Shown: one piece after another, positions 9,192 to 39,666 of the stretch
Layout: each line of letters starts with the position of its first letter
Numbering within the stretch: position 1 is the first letter of the stretch
Assembly: GCA_963720265.1 (NCBI GenBank)
Contig: CAVRET010000002.1
Coordinates: forward strand, 520,704-584,703
Source: an uncultured bacterium
GTDB lineage: Bacteria > Patescibacteriota > Saccharimonadia > UBA4664
DNA: 64,000 nucleotides
Direction of reading: 5' to 3'
Notes under the pieces: model-generated
What the model saw: only the letters and a program-made list of their open reading frames with translations
Told to the model about the DNA's origin: nothing
Database searches by the model: none
Made by a program: the position numbers and the translations under genes

Positions 9192-9530
9192 ATGCCTTAC
9201 GCAAATAGGAAAAAAGCCCGAGCAGCAATCCGGAAGCACTATCTCGAGAATATTGATTATTACGTTCAAAAATCAGCAGCTAAGCGAGAGCGCCTAAAAC
9301 ATATTGTGCAAAGTATCAAGGCAGCATCACCGTGCGCAGATTGCCGGCACAACTTTCCGTATTATGTAATGGATTTTGATCATATTGGTGCCAAACTCAT
9401 GAATGTGAGTAAAATGATTAAAAAGGGCAGCATAAAACCCGTCCTCGAGGAAATTGCCAAGTGTGAGGTCGTGTGTGCAAACTGTCATCGAGTACGCACA
9501 TTTATGCGCCTGAGAACTTCACCCAAGTAG
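9192..9530 (+). CDS. HNH endonuclease family protein
   Basis: Cys-rich with CADCRH...CANCHR HNH/zinc-finger motif, ~112 aa. The track's longer 8832 ORF overlaps the GH59 gene and is rejected. Confidence 0.6.
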   Translation: MPYANRKKARAAIRKHYLENIDYYVQKSAAKRERLKHIVQSIKAASPCADCRHNFPYYVMDFDHIGAKLMNVSKMIKKGSIKPVLEEIAKCEVVCANCHRVRTFMRLRTSPK

Positions 9531-9538: not shown

Positions 9539-9613
9539 GCCCCGGTAGCTCAGCGGATAGAGCACCTGTCTTCGGAACAGGGTGCGGGGGTTCGATTCCC
9601 TCCCGGGGCACCA
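9539..9613 (+). tRNA. tRNA-Arg (anticodon TCG)
   Basis: Acceptor GCCCCGG/CCGGGGC. D-arm GCTC-AGCGGATA-GAGC. Anticodon stem CCTGT/ACAGG with loop CTTCGGA. T-loop TTCGATT. Encoded CCA. Confidence 0.75.
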
Positions 9614-9650: not shown

Positions 9651-10022
9651 GTGACAGCTCTCAGCCCCGAATTCATCCAATATGCCAACAAGCTTGTAAA
9701 CGACCATCCTGACGACATCGTGGCCGTGTACAATCTCGATTCAACCTGCGCCTGGGCCTCACCCACGCATGAGACCATCCTTGGCTATTCGCAAACCGAA
9801 ATGATTGGCCTGCCTTGGACTCGCTTTGTAGCGCCCCGCGACCGTGCCCATGCCAGTCTGGCCGGCGCCGACGCCATGCTCACCGGCCGTTCGGTCGAAT
9901 TTGGTTTCAGCGCCGTCACCAAATCCGGCGATCATATTCCGGTGCGGGGCCACGCCTGGATCCGTACCGACGAGCCCACTCACAAACGTTACTTGATCTT
10001 CCAGGCCAGCCCCCGACCCTAG
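9651..10022 (+). CDS. stand-alone PAS-domain protein
   Basis: 123 aa with a PAS-fold-like layout (DDIVAVYNLDSTCAWASPTHETILGYSQTEMIGLPWTRFVAPRD...). Lies between two tRNAs. Confidence 0.5.
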   Translation: MTALSPEFIQYANKLVNDHPDDIVAVYNLDSTCAWASPTHETILGYSQTEMIGLPWTRFVAPRDRAHASLAGADAMLTGRSVEFGFSAVTKSGDHIPVRGHAWIRTDEPTHKRYLIFQASPRP

Positions 10023-10067: not shown

Positions 10068-10144
10068 GGGCCATTAGCTCAGTTGGTTAGAGCAGCTGCC
10101 TCTTAAGCAGCGTGTCCTGGGTTCGAGTCCCAGATGGCCCTCCA
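10068..10144 (+). tRNA. tRNA-Lys (anticodon CTT)
   Basis: Acceptor GGGCCAT/ATGGCCC, anticodon loop CTCTTAA, T-loop TTCGAGT, encoded CCA. Its 3' end GATGGCCCTCCA is reiterated in every array repeat. Confidence 0.85.
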
Positions 10145-10190
10145 TAGCACTTATGCTTAAACGACCGAAAGGTCGTTTTTGATATGATTA
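10133..10190 (+). repeat. array repeat R0 (native tRNA-Lys 3' end plus 3' flank: conserved box, hairpin/T-run, TGaTATGAT)
   Basis: GATGGCCCTCCA-TAGCACTTATGCTTAAA-ACGACCGAAAGGTCGTTTTT-GATATGATTA. Confidence 0.8.
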
Positions 10191-10194
10191 ACCC

Positions 10195-10716
10195 ATGCCA
10201 CTCATATACGTTACTGGCATTGCTGGTTCAGGAAAGTCTGCGGCCCAAAAAGAACTCCAGAGACGAGGGTATGAGGCCCATGATGTCGACGAGCCGGGAA
10301 TTGGCGCAGCCTATAATCTACAAACTGGTGAGATTGTTAGTATCCCTGACGCAGCAGAGCGGTCGCCGGAATGGTTTGAGGCACACACCTGGAAGATGGA
10401 CCTTGAGGCTGTTAAGGAACTCAAAGCTCGGTCGCTTCATGGCGTTATATATTTATGTGGGCGAGCGGGCAATGAAAGCGAAGCCTGGCGATTATTTGAC
10501 AAGGTTGTCTACCTCGATATAAATGACGACACACTGCGTTGGCGTCTTGCCGTGAGGGAGGACAATGACTTTGGCAAGACAGAACATGAACTCCAGCAGA
10601 TTCTTAAAAGAAATAAGCGAGCCCGCGAGGAGTTTGAGCCACTTGGCGCTGTATTTATTGATGCTTCAGAGTCACTAGATAAAGTTGTTGGTGAGATTGT
10701 GAAACAATCACAGTAG
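10195..10716 (+). CDS. P-loop NTPase / small-molecule or nucleotide kinase-like protein (cassette 1)
   Basis: Walker A GIAGSGKSAAQ at the N-terminus, 173 aa. Stop TAG 10714-10716 lies inside repeat R1 (caGTAGcaa). Confidence 0.6.
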   Translation: MPLIYVTGIAGSGKSAAQKELQRRGYEAHDVDEPGIGAAYNLQTGEIVSIPDAAERSPEWFEAHTWKMDLEAVKELKARSLHGVIYLCGRAGNESEAWRLFDKVVYLDINDDTLRWRLAVREDNDFGKTEHELQQILKRNKRAREEFEPLGAVFIDASESLDKVVGEIVKQSQ

Positions 10717-10780
10717 CAACGGTCGTCACTACGGCCATCCATAGCACTTATGCTTAAAAAGAAACCGCAAGGTTTCTTTT
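10711..10780 (+). repeat. array repeat R1
   Basis: CAGTAGCAACGGTCGTCACTACGGCCATCCATAGCACTTATGCTTAAA + hairpin GAAACCGCAAGGTTTC + TTTT. Confidence 0.8.
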
Positions 10781-10990
10781 GTGTTAGCTAGAATAGTTCA
10801 AATGAGCAAGTTACTCTCAGGTCAAACACTCGCGACGATTACTGTCATTTCAGTGCTCCTTGTTCTCTGTGCATTTACTTGGCCCGCAATCAATAAAGCC
10901 AGGGCCACTTCCCATCTCAAACGGGTATTCAGCCAAGAGGCTAGCCCGCTAATCCCGGAAGTAACCGCCCTATGGAGGGGTGCATTCTAG
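10781..10990 (+). CDS. small membrane protein, possibly the N-terminal fragment of a frameshifted cassette gene (cassette 2)
   Basis: TM helix ATITVISVLLVLCAF. Its frame matches the TAG embedded in repeat R2, but the frame closes at 10990. Confidence 0.3.
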   Translation: MLARIVQMSKLLSGQTLATITVISVLLVLCAFTWPAINKARATSHLKRVFSQEASPLIPEVTALWRGAF

Positions 10991-11440
10991 CAATAGATTG
11001 GAATGTGACGAGGTAGCGCACACCCGTACCAAATCACAACTCTACTGCAAGGATACGCAGGCGTTCAAATACAACCCGGTACCCCTTCCCGATTCATCAC
11101 GGTCTGAAATAGTTACTGAAGCTACACGCCTCGACAAGGCACTCGTTCAAAACGGTTGGGCAGTGGATAGGGCCCAAGATACAACCAAGACCATCGCGGC
11201 CAGTATACCGACGGCTCCTGTTGCAGCCTTTCACGGGGGTGGTGTGCCATTCCACAAAAACATTGGGGATATAAGCTGCAATCTTGAGGTTAGGTTCAGC
11301 GGACCTACGGACGGAGTCTCACCCGGTGTGATAACCATAAATCGATCTCGTGCCAACAAAATATTGCGTATTTTATGCTTCATGCATCGAACTATACAAA
11401 TCACGGATTTGGTGGTCAAAGCCTCGTACTTTAGTTGCTA
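10980..11440 (+). pseudogene. hypothetical ORF continuing cassette 2 in another frame (possible frameshifted gene)
   Basis: ~150-codon open frame with no stop before R2. It reads straight through the repeat into the next gene, which produces the artifactual 381-aa track ORF. Confidence 0.25.
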
Positions 11441-11508
11441 CAGCCTGTACGATGGCCCTCCAAAGAGCTTATGCTTAAAAACGACCACCAGTTCGTTTTG
11501 TTATCATG
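11431..11508 (+). repeat. array repeat R2
   Basis: TTAGTTGCTACAGCCTGTACGATGGCCCTCCAAAGAGCTTATGCTTAAAA + hairpin ACGACCACCAGTTCGTTTT + GTTATCATGG. Confidence 0.8.
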
Positions 11509-11513
11509 GGAGC

Positions 11514-12125
11514 ATGAAGCCATATATACTTGGTTTGTGCGGCGGATCGGGTTCAGGAAAATCTACACTAGCATTTGGGTTGGCCGATATGCATCCAGGT
11601 GAAGTTACAGTATTCCACTTAGATGATTACTTCCGGCCCAGAGAAGAAGTTCTCACACTACATGGTTTCGTCAATTATGATGACCCCAGAGCCCTAAACA
11701 GTGACAAGATGATAGCTGACTTAGCCACGCTTATTAGCGGCAAGCCGGTTACTATTAACACAAAAAGCCCTAGACTGAATCCCGATTATGTCAAAACCAG
11801 GCAGCGGGTACCGGTCCGATTTGAGCCAAATAAGTTAATTGTGGTTGAAGGCTTCTTGACCTTGTATTTTGAGGAACTCAGAAAGCACTTTGATTATTCG
11901 ATTTACTTGGATGCCCCTTTTGATGACAGCACAGGCAGGCGCGCAGGCGAAAAGATAAACAATTACTCCCCTGAATATTTCAAGCTCGTGCTAAAGCCAA
12001 TGAGCGAAAGATACGTATATCCAAATAAAAAATATGCTAGTCGCGTTGTGAATATTGAAGGCAAATCAAAGCAATACGTTCTGAATGAAGTTGAAGAAAT
12101 CTTAAACAGCCAGAGTGTCTTTTAA
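11514..12125 (+). CDS. uridine kinase / phosphoribulokinase-family P-loop kinase (cassette 3)
   Basis: LGLCGGSGSGKSTLA P-loop, DDYF, and a IVVEGFLTLYF...YLDAP layout typical of Udk/PRK. ATG 11514 lies just after R2. Confidence 0.7.
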   Translation: MKPYILGLCGGSGSGKSTLAFGLADMHPGEVTVFHLDDYFRPREEVLTLHGFVNYDDPRALNSDKMIADLATLISGKPVTINTKSPRLNPDYVKTRQRVPVRFEPNKLIVVEGFLTLYFEELRKHFDYSIYLDAPFDDSTGRRAGEKINNYSPEYFKLVLKPMSERYVYPNKKYASRVVNIEGKSKQYVLNEVEEILNSQSVF

Positions 12126-12147
12126 CTCCTGAACTTCGGTTCTAACA

Positions 12148-12215
12148 GAATGAACGATGGCCCTCCATAGCACTTATAATTAAATAACAGCTCTACAGAG
12201 CTGTTATTTAATTAT
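12148..12215 (+). repeat. array repeat R3 (variant downstream half)
   Basis: ACGATGGCCCTCCATAGCACTTATAATTAAATAACAGCTCTACAGAGCTGTTATTTAATTATTGG. The hairpin is AAATAACAGCTCT/AGAGCTGTTATTT. Confidence 0.7.
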
Positions 12216-12238
12216 TGGAACTCTGATAAAATACTTGC

Positions 12239-13015
12239 ATGTATATTTCGGTCGACATCGGCGGCACCAACATTCGCATCGCTGCAACCTCGAGCTTAGA
12301 AATCCCTCGATTCGAGCCTGCACCGATCCGAGCAAAAAGTACGCGCAATTACGAGCGTGACCTCAGTTTCATCATCGACGGCGCCCGCAGACTGGCCGGC
12401 AGCAAGCCGATCAGAGCAGTCGGCATCGGCATGCCCGGCAGTTTTAACGATCAAAAAACCGAGCTCGTTTCAACCAGATATACCAAGCACTGGGTTGGCC
12501 ATCCGTTTGTGGCCACGCTAAGTAATGAGCTAAACTGCCCAGTCTTTATCGAAAATGATGGCGTCGCTGCCGGCCTTGGCGAAGCCTACTACGGCAACCA
12601 CCCGAAGCAATTTTGCTATGTAGTTTGGGGCACCGGCATCGGCGGCGCGTCAATAGTGACGAATGCGGACAAAACCCAAGTTGAGGTCGCAAAGTTCGAC
12701 CACAAAACGCACTTCAAAGCCTGGGAAGACGACTGCGGCGGTCACGAACTGGAGGAGCATTATCACAAAACGCCGGCTGACCTCAGTGCCGAACAATGGC
12801 AAAAGGTGATGGGGAAGTTCGAGACTCATCTCCACATGTTCATTGAGCTTACCGGCACGAGAGCAGTGGTCTTTGGCGGCGGCATCGCCATTAGGAAGCG
12901 GCAAGAGCTTGAGGCCATGGCAACAGCTCAAACAAGTGTAACCGCCTCAAATTTTAACGAGGACAGTGGGGTATATGGCGGCCTCGGTGTAATTCGGGCT
13001 AACGTTCACTTATGA
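12239..13015 (+). CDS. ROK-family sugar kinase / transcriptional-regulator-like (BadF/BadG/BcrA/BcrD ATPase fold) (cassette 4a)
   Basis: N-terminal MYISVDIGGTNIRIA phosphate-1 motif, GIGMPG, and GTGIGG motifs of ROK/glucokinase. Confidence 0.65.
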   Translation: MYISVDIGGTNIRIAATSSLEIPRFEPAPIRAKSTRNYERDLSFIIDGARRLAGSKPIRAVGIGMPGSFNDQKTELVSTRYTKHWVGHPFVATLSNELNCPVFIENDGVAAGLGEAYYGNHPKQFCYVVWGTGIGGASIVTNADKTQVEVAKFDHKTHFKAWEDDCGGHELEEHYHKTPADLSAEQWQKVMGKFETHLHMFIELTGTRAVVFGGGIAIRKRQELEAMATAQTSVTASNFNEDSGVYGGLGVIRANVHL

Positions 13016-13620
13016 TAAACACAATGACAAAATATGTACTCAACTCAGGTGGCATCAAACACCAGCCCGAACTTAAGAAGAAGTTTCACCAGGAGCTCAT
13101 TAAAGGCTTGAGCTCCAATCCAAAATTCGTACTCTGCAATTTCGCCCAAGGCCGCGAGTATTGGGAAGTGAAATTCCAGGGCTACTCTGACACGATCACG
13201 GAAGATATGCCGGCCAACATAAAGCCCACATATGAATTAGCGCTACCAACTACGTTTACTGAGCAATGCAAAAATACTGATGTCATCTACTTCCACGGCG
13301 GTGATGACCACTTACTGCAGTTTTGGCTGAAGCAATTTGACCTAACCGAGCTATTTAAAAACAAAGTTGTCGCCACTAACTCGGCGAGCTCCGACATGCT
13401 TGCCACCCACCATTGGACATGCGATTGGCGCGCTTGCGCCGACGGACTCGCCGTACTGCCGATCAAATTCATTCCCCATTATTTATCCAATTTTGGCGAT
13501 AGCGATCCGCGCGGCCCAATAGATTGGCAAAAGGCTTATGACGAGCTAGCAGCGTACGGCGATACGTCGTTACCGATTTACGCCCTCAAAGAAGGTGAGT
13601 TTATCGTCAAGGAGCAGTAA
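13012..13620 (+). CDS. peptidase S51 (PepE)-like / class-I glutamine amidotransferase-like protein (cassette 4b)
   Basis: VIYFHGGDDHLLQFW...VVATNSASSDMLA resembles the PepE IYxxGGN...GxSAG block. ATGA overlap with the ROK gene. Confidence 0.4.
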   Translation: MINTMTKYVLNSGGIKHQPELKKKFHQELIKGLSSNPKFVLCNFAQGREYWEVKFQGYSDTITEDMPANIKPTYELALPTTFTEQCKNTDVIYFHGGDDHLLQFWLKQFDLTELFKNKVVATNSASSDMLATHHWTCDWRACADGLAVLPIKFIPHYLSNFGDSDPRGPIDWQKAYDELAAYGDTSLPIYALKEGEFIVKEQ

Positions 13621-13676
13621 TGCCTATACTTCAGCCCCGATCCGCGCAATATGTAGGTCCTGAGATCGCCTTACCT

Positions 13677-13750
13677 CAGTAGCAATAGCTTCTACGATGG
13701 CCCTCCATAGCACTTATGCTTAAAACGACTAACAAAGTCGTTTTTGTTAC
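13677..13750 (+). repeat. array repeat R4 (consensus form)
   Basis: CAGTAGCAATAGCTTCTACGATGGCCCTCCATAGCACTTATGCTTAAAACGACTAACAAAGTCGTTTTTGTTAC. Confidence 0.85.
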
Positions 13751-13783
13751 AGTAATACTTAGAACAGTATTTTATATATAACT

Positions 13784-14233
13784 TTGAGGCATATTATGGC
13801 CCACGCCGAAAGCAGCGCAGACATCAATCGAACACCCCGGGCAGTGTATGATTTTCTGGTCGATGGGCTCAATAATTCAAAATGGCGCAGTGCAGTTGTT
13901 GAAATTAGCCTAAAACACGGGTCTGTCGGTCAAGTTGGGACGGAGTATCGCCAAGTTCTCAAGGGCCCAGGCAGTCGCACCATTCATGGCGATTACCACC
14001 TGACTGCCGCCGAATCTCCATCCCGGATCGCGTTTGAAGTGACTGCGGGACCCGCCAGGCCCAGGGGCGAGTACCGGCTTGTGGCCTCTGGGGATGGTAC
14101 GAAAGTCACCTTTATTCTCGACCTTAAAACCTCTGGCTTGATGAAACTTATGGAACCAATGATTCGCCAAACCATGCAGTCAGAAGTATCAAACTTAGCT
14201 CAACTCAAGGCCATCTTAGAGCTTAGTAAATAG
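13784..14233 (+). CDS. SRPBCC (START/Bet v1/polyketide-cyclase-like) family protein (cassette 5)
   Basis: ~145 aa. A RTPRAVYDFLVDGLNNSKWRSAV N-terminus is typical of the SRPBCC ligand-binding fold. Alternative start at 13796. Confidence 0.55.
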   Translation: MRHIMAHAESSADINRTPRAVYDFLVDGLNNSKWRSAVVEISLKHGSVGQVGTEYRQVLKGPGSRTIHGDYHLTAAESPSRIAFEVTAGPARPRGEYRLVASGDGTKVTFILDLKTSGLMKLMEPMIRQTMQSEVSNLAQLKAILELSK

Positions 14234-14306
14234 CTACTGGTGGTAAAAAAGCAGTATATAAACTTTACAATGCCATGACATGAACCGTCTGCAACTGTCG
14301 TATTAT

Positions 14307-14380
14307 GGTTGCAATAGCTTCCACGATGGCCCTCCATAGCACTGATGCTTAAACGACCGACAGGTCATTTTTGTTATGAT
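14307..14380 (+). repeat. array repeat R5
   Basis: GGTTGCAATAGCTTCCACGATGGCCCTCCATAGCACTGATGCTTAAACGACCGACAGGTCATTTTTGTTATGATTGCC. Confidence 0.8.
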
Positions 14381-14386
14381 TGCCAC

Positions 14387-14794
14387 ATGCACAAAGAAGA
14401 ATTCGTCGAAGCCGTTAAAAAACTTGGCCTCAAGCCGAATGATTATATTGTTGTTGGCTCCGGTGTGTTGGTGGCTCTGGGTATCCGTACGGCCACTGAC
14501 GTTGACCTCATAGTCAGTGAGCCGATTTTTCATCAATTTGAAGAAACAGGTGAGTGGCAGCGCAAAGATTTCGATGATGGGACGCATTATCTGCTTAAAG
14601 GTAAGTATGAAATTGGCCTCGACTGGGATGGCGAGAATACTACGCCGAACCTTAAAGATTTGAAGAAGTCGGAGGTTGTAATTGATAATATTCCGTTTGT
14701 TAGTCTCGAACGCCTCCGCCACTGGAAGGCTTGGAAGAATACGCCAAAGCACCTCGCAGACATTCGTTTGATAGACGACTACCTAAGCAGGTAA
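14387..14794 (+). CDS. minimal nucleotidyltransferase (Pol-beta superfamily) domain protein (cassette 6)
   Basis: Carries the two halves of the nucleotidyltransferase signature: hG[GS] (VVGSGVLVALGIR) and DxD (TATDVDLIV). 135 aa. Confidence 0.5.
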   Translation: MHKEEFVEAVKKLGLKPNDYIVVGSGVLVALGIRTATDVDLIVSEPIFHQFEETGEWQRKDFDDGTHYLLKGKYEIGLDWDGENTTPNLKDLKKSEVVIDNIPFVSLERLRHWKAWKNTPKHLADIRLIDDYLSR

Positions 14795-14828
14795 AGCTAG
14801 CTCAACAATCAAAGGCCTTTGAGCCAAG

Positions 14829-14910
14829 ACAGTAGTTGCTACAGCCTGTACGATGGCCCTCCAGCAATAATCATTAAATAACGGCTTCACAGAGCCGTTA
14901 TTTCGTTATT
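14829..14910 (+). repeat. array repeat R6 (variant downstream half)
   Basis: CAGTAGTTGCTACAGCCTGTACGATGGCCCTCCAGCAATAATCATTAAATAACGGCTTCACAGAGCCGTTATTTCGTTATTCG. Confidence 0.75.
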
Positions 14911-15199
14911 CGTTCTTAGCCCTAACGACATGTTAGAGCTAGCTAGGTTAATGGTTATTTGAAATTACATAAGATATATGTTATAAGTGTATGTAGGCTC
15001 AACTATCCAGAGGAGTGCATGGTGCCTATTCACTCGATTGTCTTGGCTGTGAATAATCCACCCCGAGACGAGGTGGAGAGTGTCGTCAAAATGATGGCGG
15101 GCGGTGGATGGAGATCTGTGTGGTGCGCAGACCGCGCATCACTTGACCAGTTGCTGCCTCCTCCGGAGCGCCGCATTGGCTATGTGGTCGTGGGACTGT

Positions 15200-15800
15200 C
15201 TGGCTCACTCAGTGAACCACCTCGGGCTAAAGCCCGAGGCTTCCTTGGGGCGGCATGCTGGGTTTAGCTTTCCATTGATTTTCGATATACCGTTTAATCG
15301 CCTGCTCCGTGTTACGACCAACACTCTCGGCGAAGTAGCCATCCGCCCAGAAGCTATCTCCCCATAACCATTCTTCCAGTTCAGGATGCGTCTGGCGGAT
15401 AGCCCGACTTGATCCGCCCTTGAAGATTTGTACTACCTGTGACACCGAGATGCTGGGAGGTAGTTCAATAAGCATATGAATGTGGTCGGGCATCACTGCC
15501 AGCCGCTCAATCCACCAGTCGTTCATCTCTGCGCACTGAAAGAATAATCGCTTCAGGTCAGTGGCGACTTCGCCCCGCAGGATGCTTTTGCGGTACTTGG
15601 GTATCCAGACGATATGAAATTGCAGGCGATATAGCGTATGCGCACCGGAATAATATTTTTTACCTGACTTCACATACCCAGCATGCCAGACTGTCGGCGC
15701 CAGCGCCAAGGTTGACCGCCATCCGACTTAGCCTTGGTGCTACCGCCTTAAGCGGACCCATTCATCCCTGGCCTAAAGGCCCAGGGGTCTCTGGGAGGTT
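15200..15800 (-). mobile_element. IS200/IS605-family insertion sequence (tnpA only)
   Basis: Y1 HUH transposase gene flanked by two subterminal hairpins with identical loops: CCTCGGGCTAAAGCCCGAGG (15219-15239) and CCCTGGCCTAAAGGCCCAGGG (15766-15786). Boundaries are approximate. Confidence 0.7.
15227..15709 (-). CDS. tnpA: IS200/IS605 family transposase TnpA (Y1 HUH)
   Basis: HIVWIPKYRK and the HUH motif PDHIHMLIE, with the catalytic Tyr region YIENQWK. ~150 aa. Confidence 0.85.
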   Translation of the reverse strand: MALAPTVWHAGYVKSGKKYYSGAHTLYRLQFHIVWIPKYRKSILRGEVATDLKRLFFQCAEMNDWWIERLAVMPDHIHMLIELPPSISVSQVVQIFKGGSSRAIRQTHPELEEWLWGDSFWADGYFAESVGRNTEQAIKRYIENQWKAKPSMPPQGSLGL

Positions 15801-16043
15801 ACTAGAGAGGACATCGCCCCTCATATTCCAAGCGACCTACGTGACGTTGCCGCGTTTGGCCCTGGAGCGAGAAGTTTCGGAATGGTCGTCTAGCTACGAT
15901 TTTTCCGCAGATGAGAGCACTATGGTCAAAGTAATGGCTAACGACCTCGATGCCCTCTCCCGCGAGGCTCTACTCAGCCGACTCCTGAGCCCCCGAATTC
16001 ACAAATGCGCAGACCGATCGGGGTCTGCGCTCTTTCTTTCACT

Positions 16044-16130
16044 GCAGTAGCAATAGCTTCTACGATGGCCCTCCAGAGCTCTTATGCTTAAAATGACTTC
16101 CGCAAGGGAGTCATTTTGGTATCATTATCA
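16044..16130 (+). repeat. array repeat R7
   Basis: TGCAGTAGCAATAGCTTCTACGATGGCCCTCCAGAGCTCTTATGCTTAAAATGACTTCCGCAAGGGAGTCATTTTGGTATCATTATC. Confidence 0.85.
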
Positions 16131-16132
16131 AG

Positions 16133-16675
16133 ATGAATGAATTCCAAACCACCCAGCTAAATGAAATTCTGGCCCGCGACCGAGAATTGGCAAAAAAGTT
16201 CGCTGAACTTAAGGAAGTTTTTGCTCAAAAATTTGGTGAAGATAGCGACATGTACGAAAGGGCGACCGCCATCTTCCTAGCTAACGCCCTCAACGGTGCT
16301 GCAGACTATGGAATTCCGCCCCTATATTCTGTGTATTGGAAACCATATCAAACCCAGAACCTCTTGCATCACATCACTACCAAGAAAAACGTCGACTCCA
16401 TTCGCAGGCATGGTCTGGAACCACGTGACCCTTCTCCTCGTCCATGGGCCGGCATGAAGGCGGTCTATATGGCCGAACCAAATGACCCGCTTTACGATAA
16501 ATCCGAACAAGCGGTCTTGGGTCATGTGCGTAAAAAAGGCGAAAACCCTGTGTTACTACAAATCAAAACCAATAACAAACTCTACAAGTCAATTGAACCA
16601 GGCCGAACCTTCCAAGTGATTTCGGTTGACCACATCGGACCTGAGGAAATCGTTGACTACCAAGGTCCAGGCTAA
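16133..16675 (+). CDS. hypothetical protein (cassette 8)
   Basis: 180-aa ORF starting right after R7. No recognisable domain. Confidence 0.45.
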   Translation: MNEFQTTQLNEILARDRELAKKFAELKEVFAQKFGEDSDMYERATAIFLANALNGAADYGIPPLYSVYWKPYQTQNLLHHITTKKNVDSIRRHGLEPRDPSPRPWAGMKAVYMAEPNDPLYDKSEQAVLGHVRKKGENPVLLQIKTNNKLYKSIEPGRTFQVISVDHIGPEEIVDYQGPG

Positions 16676-16708
16676 TATCGTTACGTACGGCTCTTCAGCC
16701 TGACGCAG

Positions 16709-16792
16709 ACTAGTTGCGATAGCGTATACGATGGCCCTCCGTAGTACTTATGCTTTAAGACTCCATCGGGAGTCTTTTTGCTTTGCTATGAT
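16709..16792 (+). repeat. array repeat R8
   Basis: CTAGTTGCGATAGCGTATACGATGGCCCTCCGTAGTACTTATGCTTTAAGACTCCATCGGGAGTCTTTTTGCTTTGCTATGATG. Confidence 0.8.
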
Positions 16793-16794
16793 GA

Positions 16795-17448
16795 ATGCAT
16801 ATGAGCAGTCTCTCCGAATATGAGGCAAAACCCTGGCCCTATACGGTAATTGTGGGCATCATTATTTACGTTGCAATTGATATTCTCTTGGCTTTTCTAA
16901 GGCCCGATTACAGTAGCCTGCATAACGCTGAAAGCGATTATGGCAGAGGTCCCTACTCTTGGGTTATGGACATTAATTTTTTGCTACGCTGTGTGTTATC
17001 GCTAGCTTTAGTAAAAGCTATCTGGACCACCTTCCCTAAAGAAAAGCCCATTAAGAAAGCTTCTTATTGGCTCATTGCATGGGCGATTTCTTCAGGGCTG
17101 CTGGCATTCTTCGCTGACAATCCCTTCGGCTATCCCAAGCTTAAGAGTGGTTCAATACACCTACTGTTGGCTTTTGTAGTATTTATCAGTGCTTTAGTAG
17201 GAATGGTTTTGCTAACTAGACGCTTTATGATTGTCCAGGCTTGGCGCGATACCGCTGGTTTACTGGTAGGCATAACGATACTCGCAATAGTATCCCTAGT
17301 ACTAATGGGTTACGTAGGGATTAGGCCACACACATTAGGCGGCTTATATGAAAGATTTTTTCTAGGCTCGGTACTTCTATGGGAAGGGGTTGTTGCTATA
17401 AAAATTATTTCAGGTAACAATACGTCCTCTTCAGCTAGTCGCAAATAG
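16795..17448 (+). CDS. polytopic membrane protein, unknown function (cassette 9)
   Basis: ~6 predicted TM helices, 217 aa. Confidence 0.45.
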   Translation: MHMSSLSEYEAKPWPYTVIVGIIIYVAIDILLAFLRPDYSSLHNAESDYGRGPYSWVMDINFLLRCVLSLALVKAIWTTFPKEKPIKKASYWLIAWAISSGLLAFFADNPFGYPKLKSGSIHLLLAFVVFISALVGMVLLTRRFMIVQAWRDTAGLLVGITILAIVSLVLMGYVGIRPHTLGGLYERFFLGSVLLWEGVVAIKIISGNNTSSSASRK

Positions 17449-17478
17449 CAAAAAACAATCCAATTACTACCTTGTATT

Positions 17479-17512
17479 ACAGTGCGATAGCGTGCACGAT
17501 GGCACTCACACT
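17479..17512 (+). repeat. array repeat R9 (upstream half only, degenerate)
   Basis: CAGTGCGATAGCGTGCACGATGGCACTCACAC. It lacks the conserved box and hairpin. Confidence 0.5.
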
Positions 17513-17868
17513 TACCCCGCAAAAATAGTATGAAGCACCGTCATAAGTTTGGATCTTTGGCTTGGTGATATCTCGGCAATACGCTCCCTAAGCCTGGCTT
17601 TATCAACGACTCTTAGCTGGTCACAGGCGGCGCTAGACTTCCGTCCCAAAATATTCACGTCCACCCGAAAAGGCCAGCTGGTTCTGGTCGTTGTCATTGG
17701 AATGATAAGTACCGTCTTCAAGAAATCGTTCATCTCGTCCGGAGATATTACGAGGCCGGGTCTAATTTTCTGAAGCTCTGAACCTCGTGTGGGATCCGGG
17801 TCAAACCAATAAACCGAGAACCGCCTAATGTTTGTCACGTGCGAGCCATTCCTCGTAGGTCGGACCAT
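17512..17868 (-). CDS. mazF: type II toxin, MazF/PemK/Kid-family mRNA interferase
   Basis: VYWFDPDPTRGSELQKIRPGLVISPDEMN...IIPMTTT...CDQLRVVDKARL parallels MazF/Kid blocks. Start is uncertain (candidates 17835-17895). Confidence 0.65.
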   Translation of the reverse strand: MVRPTRNGSHVTNIRRFSVYWFDPDPTRGSELQKIRPGLVISPDEMNDFLKTVLIIPMTTTRTSWPFRVDVNILGRKSSAACDQLRVVDKARLRERIAEISPSQRSKLMTVLHTIFAG

Positions 17869-18142
17869 CCCAAGGCATACTGTCGAGCCCATCACTGGCT
17901 GCAGCGTCCCACGATGTCAAGTCGGTATCATCGGCCAAGGCATGGGGGTTAGACGCTAAAACTGCTTGAATTTGCTGCCTCCACCCTTGTCTTGGATTAG
18001 CCGCAGAACGAATCACTATCTCGCCTGGTCGAGCCTCCAATTCAACCGCGTCTTCCAGATTGCTCAAAGCAAGCAACGCCTTTGGCAGCCGCACTGCTTT
18101 ACTATTACCGGACGTAGTTAATCTCGTAGATATCGTTGACAT
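17825..18142 (-). CDS. mazE: type II antitoxin (AbrB/MazE-type swapped-hairpin domain)
   Basis: TTSGNSKAVRLPKALL matches the SpoVT/AbrB motif. Sits upstream of and overlaps the toxin gene. Confidence 0.6.
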   Translation of the reverse strand: MSTISTRLTTSGNSKAVRLPKALLALSNLEDAVELEARPGEIVIRSAANPRQGWRQQIQAVLASNPHALADDTDLTSWDAAASDGLDSMPWDGPTYEEWLARDKH

Positions 18143-18228
18143 ATGTACATTGTACGTACCTCACTCGATTCGTTCAATAGGGATAATGTCCGAAAGGCGC
18201 AACTTTAGGGTCGGGCTTTAGCCGGATC

Positions 18229-18312
18229 TCAGTGGCAATAGACTCCACGATGGTCCTCCATAACACTCATGCTTAAACTTCTCTACATCGAGGAGTTTTT
18301 TGTTGCTATGCT
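18229..18312 (+). repeat. array repeat R10
   Basis: CAGTGGCAATAGACTCCACGATGGTCCTCCATAACACTCATGCTTAAACTTCTCTACATCGAGGAGTTTTTTGTTGCTATGCTTTGACTATGG. Confidence 0.8.
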
Positions 18313-18897
18313 TTGACTATGGAAACCTTTAAAGACCTTCCGGTACTGCTAGCCGCTACACAATCTGACTGGAGAGCCTGGCTTGAGGAAAACCATATGC
18401 AGCTTCGGGGTATATGGCTCAAGCACGCGAAAAAGTCGTCTGGAAAGCCGTCAGTTAGCTATACGGAGGCACTGGAAGAGGCGTTGTGTTACGGCTGGAT
18501 AGATAGTCAAAAGCAAGCTTACGATGAGGACTATTTTCTGCAAAAGTTTACGCCTAGGGGCCCTAAAAGCGTGTGGTCTAAAATTAACGTTGCCAAAGCT
18601 GAAGCGCTCATTAAGTCAAGAAAAATGCAGCCAGCCGGATTGGAGACAATCAGTGCGGCCAAGCAGGATGGTAGATGGGACGCCGCCTACGACTCCTCAA
18701 GTTCGAATAAAATTCCGGAAGATTTTCAGGCGGCTTTAAATGAAAACCCTAAAGCCAAGCAGTTTTTTGAGACGCTCAATAAAGCGAACATTTACGCTTT
18801 TTCCTGGCGGATACAAACCGCTAAAAAGCCGGAAACCCGGAAAGCAAAAATCGACCAGTTTATCGAGATGCTAAATCGAGGCCAGAAACTTCATTAG
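18313..18897 (+). CDS. YdeI/OmpD-associated family (DUF1801-like) protein (cassette 11)
   Basis: 194 aa. WIDSQKQAYDEDYFLQKFTPRGPKSVWSKIN...KAKQFFETLNKANIYAFSWRIQTAKKPETR is typical of this family. Stop TAG 18895-18897 is inside repeat R11 (caTTAGcaa). Confidence 0.55.
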   Translation: MTMETFKDLPVLLAATQSDWRAWLEENHMQLRGIWLKHAKKSSGKPSVSYTEALEEALCYGWIDSQKQAYDEDYFLQKFTPRGPKSVWSKINVAKAEALIKSRKMQPAGLETISAAKQDGRWDAAYDSSSSNKIPEDFQAALNENPKAKQFFETLNKANIYAFSWRIQTAKKPETRKAKIDQFIEMLNRGQKLH

Positions 18898-18990
18898 CAA
18901 GCCCAATTTGAGTTGCGACAGCGCCTACTGTGGCCCTCCGGCAATTATCTTCAAACTAATAGCTTCCTGAAGCCATTAGTTTATTATCCA
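18893..18990 (+). repeat. array repeat R11 (variant downstream half)
   Basis: CATTAGCAAGCCCAATTTGAGTTGCGACAGCGCCTACTGTGGCCCTCCGGCAATTATCTTCAAACTAATAGCTTCCTGAAGCCATTAGTTTATTATCC. Confidence 0.7.
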
Positions 18991-19149
18991 AGCACGCCAC
19001 CCTAGTAGACGTGCAACTATCCTCGCCATATGATTATCTACATGAGCAATCGGCCTGGATTAGTAAAGCAATTCAATGAAGCTTTTTCAAAAGGCGACCG
19101 ACATCTAGCAGAGGAACTGTTGGCCCCTAACTTCACGTTCTCGGCGCCG

Positions 19150-19750
19150 CCCGATCCCTTAACCCCGCGAGGAACCCCGGAGCTTGCTCCGGGGAGGGAT
19201 AGCGCCGGCGAGCACCTGTCCGCCTCTGGTGGACACAGCAGTCTTTCATTAGCACAATGGTGGTATGGACGTTCAAATCGGTGCCCACTGTCGGTATCAG
19301 ATTCGGTACCATTTGGTATGGGGTGTCAAACTTCGACGCAAGGTACTGCTAGCCAACCGCAGCCAATACTTAAAGCGGGTGCTTGTCGAGATAGCCCAGG
19401 CTTACGACTGGGAGCTGGAAGCTGTTGGCACCGATGACGACCATGTCCATGTATTTATAGGTGCTCATCCAAAAATCGCGCCAGAGAAGTTGGTACAGAT
19501 CTTAAAAAGCAAGAGCGCACGGGCCTTGTTTGTCCAGTTTCCCGAAGTCAAACAGTTCTTGTGGGGCGGTGCGATGTGGAGTGTCGGCTATTACATTAGG
19601 ACCGTCTCTGACGGTCCGTTGGAAGGAGTTATAAAGACGTATGTTGAGCAACAAGGTAAGCACCGACCCACTCAGGCCAAATCGTACCAACTGAAGCTGG
19701 TGCCCTAAGTGACAACCACGGAGCTTGCTCCGTGGGGGTGTCTTTTTTTG
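19150..19750 (+). mobile_element. second, unrelated IS200/IS605-family insertion sequence (tnpA only)
   Basis: Subterminal hairpins CCCCGGAGCTTGCTCCGGGG (19175-19194) and CCACGGAGCTTGCTCCGTGG (19717-19736) flank a Y1 transposase gene. Boundaries are approximate. Confidence 0.7.
19265..19708 (+). CDS. tnpA: IS200/IS605 family transposase TnpA (Y1 HUH)
   Basis: YHLVWGVKLRRKVL and the HUH motif DDHVHVFIG, with a C-terminal Tyr region. Only distantly similar to the first tnpA. Confidence 0.85.
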   Translation: MDVQIGAHCRYQIRYHLVWGVKLRRKVLLANRSQYLKRVLVEIAQAYDWELEAVGTDDDHVHVFIGAHPKIAPEKLVQILKSKSARALFVQFPEVKQFLWGGAMWSVGYYIRTVSDGPLEGVIKTYVEQQGKHRPTQAKSYQLKLVP

Positions 19751-20052
19751 GACCGTGACGGGTTCTTTCAGAAATGCTGGCCTCAGGGACATAACCTTAA
19801 AAATATTGAGTATGTGCGCGTAACAGAAAATGCTGATGAAGTTATCATCACGCATGAATACGCTAAGCCAGACGGCGCCAAGGGGCGCAATACCGACGTA
19901 ATTACATTTGATGGAGATAAAATCATCCGTTTGGAAGTCTATTTTGGTTGGGACACAAAAGACTGGTAGTTGTTTTCAGAATTCCTGCCAAACAATCCTC
20001 GGAAATTTTCCCCTAAGATACGTCAGAGAACGTAAGACGCAAGGGGAACTAC

Positions 20053-20805
20053 ATGGCTAAAGAAAGCATCAACGACAAAGTAGTTATTATTACTGGGGCA
20101 ACTTCGGGTATCGGAGAGGCTACTGCTAGGCTGCTGGCGACCGAAGGTGCCATCACGGTCCTGGCGGGCAGACGAGCGGAGCGGCTGGACAGACTCCGTG
20201 GCGAAATCGAAAAAAGCGGCGGGCAGGCTATGTCCGTAGAAACGGATGTCACCAAATTCGACGACACTCGGCGGCTTATCGACACCGTGCACAAAAAATA
20301 CGGCCGCATCGACATCTTATTCAACAACGCCGGCGTTATGCTGCTCGGCCCGGTGCTAGACGCCGATGTCACCGATTGGCAGCGGATGATCGATACCAAC
20401 CTATATGGGCTCATCTGGTGCACGCACGCAGTCTTGCCGCACATGGTCAAGCAAGGGAGCGGCCACATTGTTCAAACGTCGTCGGTTGCCGGCCGCACCG
20501 CCAACTCAGGCAGCGCCGTCTACAACCTCACCAAGTGGGGGGTTAATGCCTTCACTGAGGCTCTGCGTCGGGAACTAGTGGAATCCAAAATCAGGACGAC
20601 AATCATCGAGCCCGGTCTGGTAGCCACAGAGCTGCGTGAGCACATTACGAACCGGGAGGCCAAAGACCGTGTCAACGAGTGGGCCGAATCGGTGCGTCAG
20701 CTGCAGGCGGAAGATATTGCAAATGCCGTCCTCTACGCCGTCACACAGCCCAGTCATGTAGACGTCAATGAGATCCTAATTCGCCCAACCGACCAACAGC
20801 GGTAA
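20053..20805 (+). CDS. SDR-family NAD(P)-dependent oxidoreductase
   Basis: TGATSGIGEA Rossmann motif, NNAG, and a Y..K catalytic region typical of short-chain dehydrogenases. Confidence 0.8.
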   Translation: MAKESINDKVVIITGATSGIGEATARLLATEGAITVLAGRRAERLDRLRGEIEKSGGQAMSVETDVTKFDDTRRLIDTVHKKYGRIDILFNNAGVMLLGPVLDADVTDWQRMIDTNLYGLIWCTHAVLPHMVKQGSGHIVQTSSVAGRTANSGSAVYNLTKWGVNAFTEALRRELVESKIRTTIIEPGLVATELREHITNREAKDRVNEWAESVRQLQAEDIANAVLYAVTQPSHVDVNEILIRPTDQQR

Positions 20806-20837
20806 ACCGATGAGAGAGCTCAGCCGCGCCGGTGATG

Positions 20838-21224
20838 CTATTGTCCGGCCGTCGGCTCCCACAGCTCGACCTTGTTGCCTTCCGGGTCAATCACCCAGCC
20901 AAACTTCCCATATTCTGATTCATCGACCTTGTCCAATACATTGCAGCCCTCTCCCTTAAGAGCCTCCAGCAGCGCCCGGAGGTCGGCTACCCGGTAGTTC
21001 ACCATAAAGGTAGCCGTGCTTGGCGCGAAAGAGTCATCATCGGCAGACGTGATGGACCAAGCCGTTGTGCCGCCAACAGGTTTGCCAGCTCCATCTGTCC
21101 AGTCAAAGGCGGCGCCTCCCCAGTCTTGCACGTCGATGCCAAGGTGCCGCTTGTACCAGGCCTGCATTGCCTTTGGGTCTTTGGCTTTAAAGAAGATGCC
21201 ACCAATACCAGTAACGCGGTTCAT
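20838..21224 (-). CDS. VOC-family (glyoxalase/bleomycin-resistance fold) protein
   Basis: 128 aa with the VOC beta-alpha-beta-beta-beta arrangement (GIGGIFFKAKDPKAMQAWYKRHLG...). Confidence 0.6.
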   Translation of the reverse strand: MNRVTGIGGIFFKAKDPKAMQAWYKRHLGIDVQDWGGAAFDWTDGAGKPVGGTTAWSITSADDDSFAPSTATFMVNYRVADLRALLEALKGEGCNVLDKVDESEYGKFGWVIDPEGNKVELWEPTAGQ

Positions 21225-21245
21225 ACTAAAACTATATCAAAAAGT

Positions 21246-21292
21246 ATGCGCGATCGCCCTCCAGGCATTTTGTTGTTTTCTGCTATGATGCG
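21246..21292 (+). repeat. array repeat R12 (degenerate, probable right end of array)
   Basis: GCGCGATCGCCCTCCAGGCATTTTGTTGTTTTCTGCTATGATGCG retains CCCTCCA, a T-run, and CTATGAT. Confidence 0.45.
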
Positions 21293-21295
21293 CTC

Positions 21296-21898
21296 ATGAA
21301 AAACATGGAGCGCTTCGTCAATTTCAGCGACGGGGTCATGGCTATTGCCGTAACGTTGCTGGTGCTGCCTCTGGCCGAACGCGCGTCCAACGCCCGTATC
21401 AACTCGTACCACGATTTCCAAGCCGCATTTGCGCATCAACTCGCCATTTTCTTCCTCAGCTTTGTTGTCATTTGCCGCTACTGGGAGGTCCACCACAATC
21501 TATTTAGTTCCCTCAAAACTTTTAGCGCCCTCCTATTTTGGCTCAACGCCGCCTGGCTGGCCTCCATAGTACTCGTGCCGTTTACCTCCGAAATCATCGG
21601 CAACGCGAGCGGTACAAATGCATTTACGACTGCCGTTTACATTGGCTCACTACTCATCACAAGCTACATCGGCGTGGCGATCCAATGGGTGATCGTGCAA
21701 TCGCCGCAACTGCGAAAACCCGGTGTTCTGGCGCCGTCGCGTTTGCTTTACGGAGCTACCAGCGCCGTGGCCATGACCGCGGCCTTCGTGTTGAGCGTTC
21801 TCGTGCCTAGCATCGGGCCCTGGTCGCTTTTGCTGCTCATTCCGGCCGGTTACGTGGCTAAATATTGGCCGGCACAGCTCAAGCACAACCTCTCATAA
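21296..21898 (+). CDS. DUF1211 / TMEM175-like membrane protein (putative K+ channel family)
   Basis: N-terminal signature RFVNFSDGVMAIAVTLLVLPL (compare the FSDGVFAIAITLL motif) and 6 TM helices. Confidence 0.65.
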   Translation: MKNMERFVNFSDGVMAIAVTLLVLPLAERASNARINSYHDFQAAFAHQLAIFFLSFVVICRYWEVHHNLFSSLKTFSALLFWLNAAWLASIVLVPFTSEIIGNASGTNAFTTAVYIGSLLITSYIGVAIQWVIVQSPQLRKPGVLAPSRLLYGATSAVAMTAAFVLSVLVPSIGPWSLLLLIPAGYVAKYWPAQLKHNLS

Positions 21899-22026
21899 AG
21901 CGCAGGTTAATCCCGCAGGCGCTCACCAACACACGCACCACCAATGTCCCCGCTGCCACGGCCAACAGCAGGAAGTGGAGGCAGGTCTCTTCGACAGTGT
22001 TGCTACGATTATAAGCCAAGGAAATA

Positions 22027-23206: not shown

Positions 23207-23267
23207 AATGCTTTAGTATAGCAGGAAACACTCAGCCGACCGGCTGCCAATTTGCTATGCTCAGCAC

Positions 23268-23780: not shown

Positions 23781-23883
23781 CCACAGCGCCGCTCAGTTCG
23801 GTAAACTTGCAATAGTCAGTAAAAAATGATATAAACATAAAACCTAGCCTCTGGAGCTAGGCCGACCCGACACTGGGAGCAAC

Positions 23884-24507: not shown

Positions 24508-24555
24508 CCGGTGCGTCGCAGCTGCACCAGCCCATTCCGCCCGCTGACCACTCAC

Positions 24556-24600: not shown

Positions 24601-24674
24601 AGACCAAAAAACCGCACGGTAAGGCGAAACCAGTTCTGGTTTTAAGTCGGCGGTCGATAAACTACAATTTCCAT

Positions 24675-39660: not shown

Positions 39661-39666
39661 CCGGGG

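Follow-up and report, generated by a model that had tools for sequence, protein, structure and literature searches.

The 64,000-nucleotide stretch of contig CAVRET010000002.1 analyzed here (positions 520,704 to 584,703; the window in the following) derives from the ~1.1 Mb chromosome of a Saccharimonadia bacterium of the Candidate Phyla Radiation (CPR) and carries an array of 12 gene cassettes (10145 to ~20000) with the 3' end of a tRNA-Lys(CTT) gene as its anchor. The interval 10195-14794, flagged in a preliminary description of the sequence for its small-molecule kinases and a nucleotidyltransferase (NTase), corresponds to units 1-6. The reading we favor, and in which we place middling confidence, is that the six genes of this interval constitute the cargo of units 1-6, with salvage-type kinases being carried on an exchangeable cassette array. 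The wider proposal, for which the scales in our judgement stand level, is that the array represents a gene-capture platform of Saccharimonadia analogous to the integron, with the tRNA-Lys 3' end and trailer as attachment site, a 48-nt junction of the double-stranded type and not a folded attC, a recombinase acting in trans, possibly the host Xer, and a terminator and promoter belonging to each cassette. The pool of cassettes would then be the main route for swapping small-molecule-modifying enzymes and metabolic patches, the latter comprising nucleoside and sugar kinases, NUDIX and HAD enzymes and threonine and DAHP synthases. The cargo consists of ordinary enzyme families and the platform is the more interesting result. 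Saccharibacteria and other CPR bacteria have genomes of ~1 Mb, depend on their hosts for nucleotides, sugars and amino acids, and the acquisition of accessory functions in these organisms is poorly understood.

The junction repeat, its tRNA-Lys core and the cassette pool

Each unit is closed by a junction of 48 nt with the consensus TAGTTGCAATAGCnnnnACGATGGCCCTCCAnnnnnCTTATGCTTAAA, the right 29 nt of which are composed of the last 12 nt of tRNA-Lys(CTT), GATGGCCCTCCA, i.e., the 3' acceptor strand plus CCA, which is present at every junction, and of the 17-nt trailer TAGCACTTATGCTTAAA. Alignment of the junctions on GATGG gives a constant order of a cassette-side arm AGT(T/A)GCnA(T/C)AGC-nnnn-AC, GATGGCCCTCCA, TAGCACTTATGCTTAAA, a hairpin of variable sequence and a T-run, and both the conserved cassette-side arm AGTTGCAAYAGC and the conserved tRNA trailer belong to the site. 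The most conserved segment is TTATGCTTAAA with 1.3-1.8 bits per position. In the 64-kb window the core pattern of the junction occurs nine times at up to three mismatches, with zero occurrences expected, and a profile built from the junction copies finds 12, all on the plus strand, of which the tRNA locus fits profile positions 20-48 only (Table 1). The description of these genes as consecutive cassettes is thereby borne out. The copies are confined to the array next to tRNA-Lys and are always in the same orientation; as an example of their similarity, the 71 nt at 14320-14390 (junction 5) are 87% identical to 10128-10198. The units of the window are ~0.5-1 kb in size, mostly with one open reading frame (ORF) and mostly co-oriented. 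Moreover, the GC content is 0.47-0.50 over ~10-20 kb compared to 0.56-0.60 outside, i.e., the array lies ~9 points under its flanks and the host level resumes at ~20 kb.

An Rfam search of the whole window resulted in three tRNAs only, the junction falling under no known RNA family, and in single-strand folding of eight junctions the terminator-like hairpin alone was robust. A T-arm-like 4-bp stem upstream of GATGG was considered and rejected: it shows some covariation (GTAG/CTAC, GTTC/GAAC, GTGG/CCAC, GTGC/GCAC), yet its pairing is lost in four copies. Reading the translations of the 64-kb window by eye revealed no recombinase-like ORF, a crude motif test for tyrosine and serine recombinases gave 0 matches in 824 ORFs of at least 150 aa from 127 loci, and no integrase or recombinase was found with Pfam among the ten longest cassette proteins. 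We propose that units are gained and lost by recombination within the 29-nt core that is common to the tRNA locus, which would be performed by a recombinase that is encoded elsewhere and acts in trans. Each unit would be transcribed separately as a leaderless mRNA, with the leading hairpin terminating transcription of the upstream unit. The cargo would have been sampled from a hyperdiverse pool of small, soluble enzymes following no single theme, in which the three kinases of the interval would act as nucleoside-, nucleotide- and sugar-phosphorylating enzymes of the salvage type supplementing an auxotrophic epibiont.

Most units start with a terminator-like hairpin and a T-run, which are followed by an extended -10 box. 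A generic scan for sigma-70 promoters and terminators over 10-20 kb did not rise above shuffled sequences, and a position-specific test of the unit 5' ends was used in its place. For this and the following comparisons, L-numbers denote the comparison loci (e.g., L001, a Logan contig, and L003, a genome). A T-run followed within 8 nt by TGnTAnnnT was present inside the first 60 nt of 67 of 115 distinct unit 5' ends (L002-L126), compared to 2.5 on average and 10 at most in shuffled controls. The first open ATG is located 6-7 nt past the -10 hexamer in 52/65 units. In the window, the hairpin/-10 layout is shown by the post-junction segments 10162-10194, 11480-11513, 12185-12238, 14354-14386, 16093-16132 and 18278-18318, and the spacing of 6-7 nt fits the starts at 10195, 10802, 11514, 12239, 14387, 16133 and 18319, with TGATATGAT sitting 6 nt upstream of the ATG at 10195. 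The same spacing favors the start at 14387 over a longer ORF beginning at 14345. An ATG at this distance from the -10 box implies leaderless mRNAs, each putatively transcribed from a promoter of its own cassette.

This type of junction was found in at least 120 metagenome contigs and five Saccharimonadia/Patescibacteria genomes, the genomes recovered with the motif being from Saccharimonadia and Patescibacteria only. All five genomes retain the tRNA end with its trailer beside tRNA-Lys(CTT), and three of them have further junction copies downstream. MurB is the usual upstream neighbor and the relatives keep the order of MurB, tRNA-Arg and tRNA-Lys. A profile search resulted in 304 junctions and 181 complete units on at least 120 contigs, with up to 13 junctions per array. 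These units have a median length of 683 bp (interquartile range 499-975, n=181), 124 of the 181 contain one ORF of at least 60 aa, and most ORFs (190/218) are co-oriented with the junction. The cargo is hyperdiverse: the 218 proteins fall into 192 BLAST families, the arrays share almost none of them, and assemblies break up at the junction repeats.

Pfam families were tallied for 194 cassette proteins encoded outside the window, with the 25 commonest of each batch recorded. The tally comprises NUDIX (5), His_Phos_1 (4), HAD (4), PadR (4), APH (3), Peptidase_S51 (3, in other cassettes) and AAA_33/AAA_18 kinases (2, plus ~2 more by Walker-A motif or family), kinases making up ~4% of the cassette pool. 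Moreover, the pool contains methyltransferases, HicAB, YoeB/Phd, SET, SnoaL_2, DUF1801, VanY, LD-carboxypeptidase, amino-acid kinase, inositol monophosphatase, SDR, OmdA, DAHP synthase, threonine synthase, CMAS and MFS proteins. It is thus rich in enzymes adding phosphate to or removing it from small molecules and holds anabolic patches as well. The toxin-antitoxin cassettes HicAB, YoeB/Phd and ParE recur in other arrays.

Turnover is visible in the comparison with L126, which has the unit-12 cassette and the VOC and RibD_C flanks in common with the window at 71-84% nucleotide identity. There the unit-12 cassette is uninterrupted, window positions 18976-19160 and 19745-19953 being contiguous, the remaining cassettes differ from those of the window, and the SDR, TMEM175 and second Udk-like genes are absent. 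Relatives of the P-loop kinase were found in one cassette of L020 and in L128, the YdeI/OmdA cassette protein has a 78% identical counterpart in a cassette of L114, and a tblastn search of the ROK, Udk-like, SRPBCC and S51-like proteins of the window against the fetched loci resulted in one match, that of the S51-like protein to L131.

Several loci show related arrangements. In L128 (208-1079), the P-loop kinase homologue follows tRNA-Lys(TTT) and an incomplete copy of a tRNA 3' end; the unit keeps the layout of hairpin, -10 box and ATG and ends in a CTT-type junction arm, suggesting cassette movement between two tRNA-Lys loci. L127 (5616-6066) has the MurB, tRNA-Arg, tRNA-Lys synteny followed by two tandem partial copies of the tRNA-Lys 3' half, each with a hairpin; a homologue of the NTase located 2.4 kb downstream of tRNA-Lys in this locus has no recognizable junctions, which neither supports nor refutes mobility. 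Furthermore, compact runs of small enzymes with overlapping stop and start codons and free of junctions are present in L129 (2397-9413), L130 (175-6738) and L131 (5818-9738), the last beginning directly past tRNA-Gln. They hold SET, glyoxalase, AAA_33/AAA_18 kinases, serine hydrolase, dCMP deaminase, GDSL and cupin proteins as well as HAD, Exo_endo_phos, NUDIX, S51, RibD_C, APH and Maf. These runs may be fossilized arrays.

Cargo of the first six units

The preliminary description had read the interval as a P-loop kinase at 10195, a uridine-kinase/PRK-like kinase at 11514, a ROK sugar kinase with a PepE-like protein at 12239/13012, an SRPBCC protein at 13784 and a minimal Pol-beta-type NTase at 14387. 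Both first kinases and the NTase were recovered as described, the ROK kinase is confirmed with its partner staying under the Pfam cut-off, and for the SRPBCC protein the family holds while the start has to be moved (see below). The P-loop kinase has ~53 homologues. Only one source name for these includes a taxon (Candidatus Saccharibacteria), and the sources assign contradictory functions. Its family profile matched, at 1e-5 to 1e-6 throughout, gluconate and shikimate kinases of the PDB over the full length and parts of deoxyguanosine, dephospho-CoA and thymidylate kinases; no chloramphenicol-phosphotransferase (CPT) structure was among the 60 PDB matches listed of 80.

The second kinase matches Thermus uridine kinase (1.6e-18) and human NRK1 (2.7e-14) in the PDB over its full length, belongs to the Pfam PRK family (41 bits compared to a cut-off of 22) and carries a P-loop and a DDYF-type motif in its translation. 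It stays below the Udk equivalog models (95.1 bits vs 180 for NF004018; 81.4 vs 220.3 for TIGR00235). The subfamily is distributed CPR-wide, with source names including Candidatus Saccharibacteria and Saccharimonadales, and differs from bona fide bacterial Udk in being CPR-specific and only ~30% identical. Homologues with 44-53% identity are located in an MFS-Udk-TrmD-KhpA-S16-RNase III-NUDIX-NusB neighborhood in two genomes. The closest homologues (82% and 68% identity), found via the protein database only, are cassette-borne with recognizable junctions, one being followed by a cytidine-deaminase cassette and the other by ParE and SnoaL_2 genes. The reading frame of the Udk-like gene is open upstream through junction 2 (ORF 10980-12125), and this may explain that the protein database search returned no 100% identical protein of 203 aa.

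The ROK kinase exceeds the gathering threshold of its Pfam family (69.6 bits vs 22.9) and its translation contains the ATP-binding motifs DIGGT and ENDG. It is short and PPGK-like: full-length alignment was obtained only with polyphosphate/ATP gluco(manno)kinases (PDB 1woq), and the NCBIfam model of polyphosphate-glucose phosphotransferase is matched over the full length with 49.5 bits compared to a cut-off of 250. Neither a glucokinase nor a PPGK equivalog cut-off of NCBIfam was reached. The ORF of the S51-like protein overlaps the ROK stop codon by 4 nt; the protein scores 19.5 bits against Peptidase_S51 (gathering threshold 23.9) and is 29% identical to a gene of L131 that is labelled S51 by Pfam.

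These data bear on the view that the interval contains fixed housekeeping genes (Udk, glucokinase, nucleoside monophosphate kinase) that happen to lie between dispersed intergenic copies of a repeat, without being mobile. Salvage and glycolysis typically involve ROK kinases or Udk, and the more distant Udk-like homologues reside in conserved core neighborhoods; the preliminary description had itself named housekeeping enzymes with syntenic orthologues as evidence that would refute its modifying-enzyme reading, and for the Udk-like kinase this is in part what was found. However, no protein of the interval reaches an equivalog cut-off, the close Udk-like homologues sit in other cassette arrays, the tblastn search recovered the S51-like protein alone, and L126 combines common flanks with different cassettes. 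Taken with the low GC content of the array and the restriction of the repeat to tRNA-Lys arrays in constant orientation, this leaves fixed housekeeping genes as a very improbable explanation.

The SRPBCC protein belongs to Polyketide_cyc2 (53.8 bits, gathering threshold 27.4), and the ATG at 13796, which is preceded by GAGG, is a likelier start than the TTG at 13784. For the NTase no sequence match was obtained in Pfam, NCBIfam or the PDB. It carries the motif GSG...DVD at residues 24-40, and in 80 homologues D38, K114 and D125 are invariant and R34, D40, K121 and D122 nearly so. An exhaustive search revealed a family of 788 representative clusters of ~135-aa proteins, a few members of which match DUF6036 and NTP_transf_5 weakly. 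An earlier model based on three sequences (pLDDT 65, no significant fold match) was replaced by a model from 80 sequences, which has a pLDDT of 96.8 and the Pol-beta NTase fold and whose top PDB fold matches are almost all NTases. In Foldseek it matches TM1012 (E 3e-4, TMq 0.67), and its neighbors include JHP933, MenT1 (TMq 0.64) and, weaker, LinB (E 0.06); uncharacterized jumbo-phage proteins fit better (E 3e-9, TMq 0.73), and TM1012 and MenT1 are matched at least as well as ANT(2'')-Ia. Longer family members bear shikimate-kinase-like, glyoxalase, Maf, cupin or PLD domains, i.e., the same kinds of small enzymes that neighbor each other in the runs of L129-L131. The protein is a member of an unnamed family of 135-aa stand-alone enzymes with a predicted Pol-beta fold. 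It resembles ANT(2'')-Ia and TM1012 in its small single-domain Pol-beta fold and its GS...DxD motif, but differs from both in an identity of 15-19% and the absence of a sequence-model match, and from ANT(2'')-Ia furthermore in its length (135 aa compared to chains of 174-176 residues) and a TM of only 0.55.

An enrichment of the cargo for kinases, as had been proposed, was found to be weak. Kinases account for 3 of 14 array ORFs compared to 2 of 45 elsewhere in the window (Fisher p = 0.08) and to at least 8 of 194 in the wider pool (p = 0.03), with the categories having been chosen after seeing the data.

It had also been proposed that the cassette enzymes inactivate antibiotics or metabolites through O-phosphorylation and O-nucleotidylylation. 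Acting on antibiotics or toxic metabolites, such enzymes would shield an epibiont living on antibiotic-producing hosts. Consistent with this, the NTase fold matches ANT(2'')-Ia (E ~1e-3) and weakly LinB, members of its family are fused to or run into a shikimate-kinase-like kinase and a glyoxalase/bleomycin-resistance domain, and homologues of the P-loop kinase adjoin APH, dCMP/blasticidin-type deaminase, NUDIX and GNAT-like small enzymes. Moreover, the pool holds VanY, glyoxalase, SDR and methyltransferases, and APH recurs in it (3/194), so that modifying enzymes are part of the pool. On the other side, ten proteins (six in the interval, three later cassette proteins and the second Udk-like protein) were scanned against NCBIfam, a library containing APH, Mph and Vph resistance models, and gave no match to a resistance family at E <= 0.1. 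For the three cassette kinases no APH, Mph, CPT or Vph match was found in NCBIfam (E <= 0.1) or Pfam (E <= 0.01), and the PDB matches listed for the P-loop kinase profile are, as noted, free of CPT. No resistance enzyme of the Udk/PRK family turned up in the NCBIfam and PDB searches, the Udk-like gene has syntenic chromosomal orthologues, the phage proteins are well ahead of ANT(2'') as fold matches of the NTase, and the kinase enrichment is statistically weak. We consider inactivation of antibiotics an unlikely, though not negligible, function of this cargo. Its support goes no further than a distant fold and family resemblance, which is the part of the proposal that stood; calling the cargo a resistance locus is premature.

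A third view takes the cargo for parts of conflict systems, comprising toxins, remnants of toxin-antitoxin modules or anti-phage effectors. The NTase would then modify tRNA as a MenT-like toxin, the P-loop kinases would be toxins similar to zeta and the SRPBCC protein one similar to Rv0910. MenT1 is among the fold matches of the NTase, NTase-like folds are frequent in jumbo phages, the SRPBCC protein has a weak match to the Rv0910 toxin model (28.7 bits compared to a cut-off of 100), and MazEF in this array and HicAB, YoeB/Phd and ParE in others show that toxin-antitoxin cassettes occur. However, the best match of a cassette protein to the PADLOC defense models has an E value of 0.024 (DndF, 11.5 bits), the NTase, kinases and SRPBCC protein are single genes with no partner antitoxin in their own units, and the similarity of the kinases to metabolic kinases extends along the entire protein. 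Toxin functions are rated as distinctly improbable, below antibiotic inactivation and above fixed housekeeping genes.

Salvage-type kinases on an exchangeable array stay our preferred reading. The syntenic chromosomal copies of the Udk-like gene favor salvage, which had been offered as an alternative before and which for the kinases is better supported than resistance, with the target of the NTase left aside. The cytidine-deaminase cassette behind a close cassette-borne homologue and the NUDIX, HAD, histidine phosphatase, threonine synthase and DAHP synthase cassettes of other arrays point the same way. The three kinases are most likely of the salvage type and are not likely to be dedicated antibiotic kinases. 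Several points weigh against this reading. With no recombinase found, mobility is deduced from the architecture and from the differences between arrays only, and the leaderless state is deduced from the spacing. None of the six proteins reaches an NCBIfam equivalog cut-off. Families that contain resistance enzymes (APH, VanY, glyoxalase, deaminase) are present in the pool or in the neighborhoods, the Pfam census covers the 25 commonest families per batch only, and the solved neighbors of the NTase include ANT(2'')-Ia (E ~1e-3, TMq 0.55, 15-17% identity).

Further cassettes and neighboring genes

Table 1. Positions of the tRNA genes, junctions, cassette genes and selected neighbors in the window
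Feature	Position	Strand	Evidence or remark
tRNA-Arg(TCG)	9539-9613		upstream of tRNA-Lys
tRNA-Lys(CTT), array anchor, intact	10068-10144	+	ARAGORN; Rfam tRNA 69.6 bits
Junction copy 0: tRNA 3' end + 17-nt trailer TAGCACTTATGCTTAAA, proposed attachment core	10133-10161	+	profile positions 20-48 only, E 3.4e-7
Cassette 1: 173-aa P-loop kinase, AAA_18	10195-10716	+	Pfam 3e-8
Junction 1	10712-10758	+	nhmmer E 7.6e-8
Cassette 2: 62-aa hydrophobic ORF	10802-10990	+	gene call on Logan contig L001; no Pfam match
Junction 2	11432-11479	+	nhmmer E 1.1e-14
Cassette 3: 203-aa Udk/NRK/PRK-family nucleoside kinase	11514-12125	+	Pfam PRK 2.4e-10
Junction 3	12139-12184	+	nhmmer E 2.6e-8
Cassette 4, gene 1: 258-aa ROK-family sugar kinase	12239-13015	+	Pfam ROK 4.3e-19
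Cassette 4, gene 2: 202-aa Peptidase_S51/PepE-like protein	13012-13620	+	Pfam S51 8.3e-4, under cut-off
Junction 4	13678-13724	+	nhmmer E 4.3e-14
Cassette 5: 145-aa SRPBCC (Polyketide_cyc2) ligand-binding protein	13796-14233	+	Pfam 3.3e-14
Junction 5	14307-14353	+	nhmmer E 2.1e-13
Cassette 6: 135-aa Pol-beta-fold NTase, unnamed family	14387-14794	+	structure model, motif
Junction 6	14833-14876	+	nhmmer E 6.8e-9
IS200-type Y1 transposase, inserted in cassette 7	15227-15709	-	Pfam Y1_Tnp 6.6e-41
Junction 7	16046-16092	+	nhmmer E 7.8e-13
Cassette 8: 180-aa protein, no family	16133-16675	+	no Pfam match
Junction 8	16711-16755	+	nhmmer E 3e-11
Cassette 9: DUF998 membrane protein	16795-17448	+	Pfam 1.6e-23
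Junction 9, left part only	17483-17507	+	nhmmer E 1.1e-3, profile positions 5-29
Cassette 10: MazF/PemK toxin (17512-17895), MazE-like antitoxin (17825-18142)	17512-18142	-	Pfam PemK_toxin 1.5e-23; MazE_antitoxin 7.5e-5
Junction 10	18231-18277	+	nhmmer E 8.2e-11
Cassette 11: YdeI/OmdA-like protein	18319-18897	+	Pfam OmdA 1.4e-22
Junction 11, last detectable copy	18911-18948	+	nhmmer E 2.9e-5
Cassette 12: small ORF split by IS200-type element (TnpA 19265-19708)	19030-19969	+	Y1_Tnp 6.5e-33
Second Udk-like P-loop protein	22027-22659	+	AAA_18 5.3e-9, PRK 8.5e-5
APH-family phosphotransferase, ordinary chromosomal position	34877-35731	+	Pfam APH 6e-21

In cassette 2 (10759-11479), ~440 nt located 3' of the 62-aa ORF are without a convincing gene. 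For the protein of cassette 8 the sole NCBIfam hint is RNA 2'-phosphotransferase at E 0.056 (residues 70-98, LLHHITTKKNVDSIRRHGLEP). The MazF/MazE cassette runs opposite to the array, and the junction preceding it is a left arm alone. The small ORF of cassette 12 is presumably SnoaL/NTF2-like, as taken from reading its translation alone and not from a family search; the IS200-type element splitting it spans 19161-19744 and is flanked by GGAGCTTGCTCC hairpins at 19173-19197 and 19714-19738. Among the later cassettes previously listed, the YdeI-like protein is confirmed; the SDR (20053) and VOC (20838) genes are not counted as cassettes, because no junction is present past 18948, the GC content is host-like and the VOC gene is a conserved flank in L126.

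The two genes described outside the array were both found. The second Udk-like gene encodes a weak PRK/AAA_18 protein that is 29% identical to the cassette Udk-like protein, and the APH protein at 34877 scores 39.5 bits against a resistance-type APH(3') model with a cut-off of 205. Upstream of the array, tRNA-Arg(TCG) is flanked by an ORF resembling HNH endonucleases (9192-9530; CxxC...DH...CxxCH, no Pfam match) and by a 123-aa ORF consisting of a PAS domain only (9651-10022). Both were considered as array-associated genes and rejected, being absent at all other fetched loci.

Downstream, the region 20000-28300 varies in comparison to L126. Besides the SDR, TMEM175 and second Udk-like genes, L126 lacks a membrane ORF (22616-23206), a GNAT gene (23268-23780), an ORF at 23884-24507, a quinone-oxidoreductase-like ORF (26161-27093, by translation only) and a NUDIX protein; the VOC gene, the pair at 24675-26019 and RibD_C are conserved. 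The chromosomal NUDIX gene (26989-27618) resembles, by eye, a NUDIX gene at 5709-6170 of L003 that lies between junction copies; a tblastn search in which the query was shortened to 27150-27618 missed this counterpart. If the likeness is real, one gene would be cassette cargo in L003 and fixed in the window. A second patch of low GC content (46001-48000, 0.49) contains a 245-aa ORF without family (46682-47419) beside a histidine kinase. Furthermore, 35851-42166 holds a cytochrome-oxidase-like cluster with subunit II-, I- and III-like and heme O synthase-like ORFs and an NDH-2-like ORF, as read from the translations, which is noteworthy in a genome of ~1.1 Mb.

Comparison with known platforms

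No description of such a platform was found in the paper library searched for Saccharibacteria, Patescibacteria or CPR, and it appears to be undescribed. Three known systems are comparable in parts. Xer-dependent modules, such as the pdif modules of Acinetobacter plasmids and IMEX, use a 28-bp site in which XerC and XerD arms enclose a 6-nt spacer and which matches the dif site of the host. The array resembles them in its small gene modules, its short conserved sites and the lack of a dedicated recombinase nearby. A tentative lead is a partial resemblance of TTATGCTTAAA to the XerD arm of dif (TTATGTTAAAT). It differs in that all sites are direct and include a tRNA end and in that the putative XerC-side arm is unlike known dif arms.

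Islands formed by tandem integration at tRNA genes are represented by the tRNA-flanked islands of Prochlorococcus and by tycheposons. Similar to these, successive insertions are set apart by direct repeats of the 3' end of a tRNA, and the tRNA gene upstream of them is intact. However, the units are single genes of ~0.7 kb and not elements of several kb, no integrase was found in units or flanks, and the site contains in addition the cassette-side arm AGTTGCAAYAGC and the trailer.

The preliminary description had compared the cargo to that of integron cassettes. Sedentary chromosomal integrons are the third system. Long co-oriented arrays of mostly single-ORF units of ~0.5-1 kb, each bounded by a conserved repeat, a hyperdiverse and mostly uncharacterized cargo, interspersed toxin-antitoxin modules and assemblies fragmenting at the repeats are common to both. 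Hallmarks of integrons are an adjacent intI and attC sites with RYYYAAC...GTTRRRY on an imperfect hairpin of 55-140 nt, and their cassettes are promoterless and expressed from a common Pc. RYYYAAC...GTTRRRY pairs number 0 on both strands of 10145-20000 compared to 2.0 in shuffled sequences, 10 of the 11 junction intervals lack GTTRRRY, and a long imperfect hairpin of the attC type was not seen in the folding of the junctions. With neither IntI nor attC found, the term integron does not fit the platform. Moreover, in contrast to integrons, insertion takes the 3' end of a tRNA gene as its target, and most units have their own terminator and extended -10 box and appear to be leaderless. If the array is an active capture system, this would explain the breaks of metagenome assemblies at these regions, and the 48-nt junction would be a PCR-addressable window on the mobile gene pool of an uncultivated phylum, including any real antibiotic-modifying genes it holds. 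The integron concept would then be extended beyond IntI and attC.

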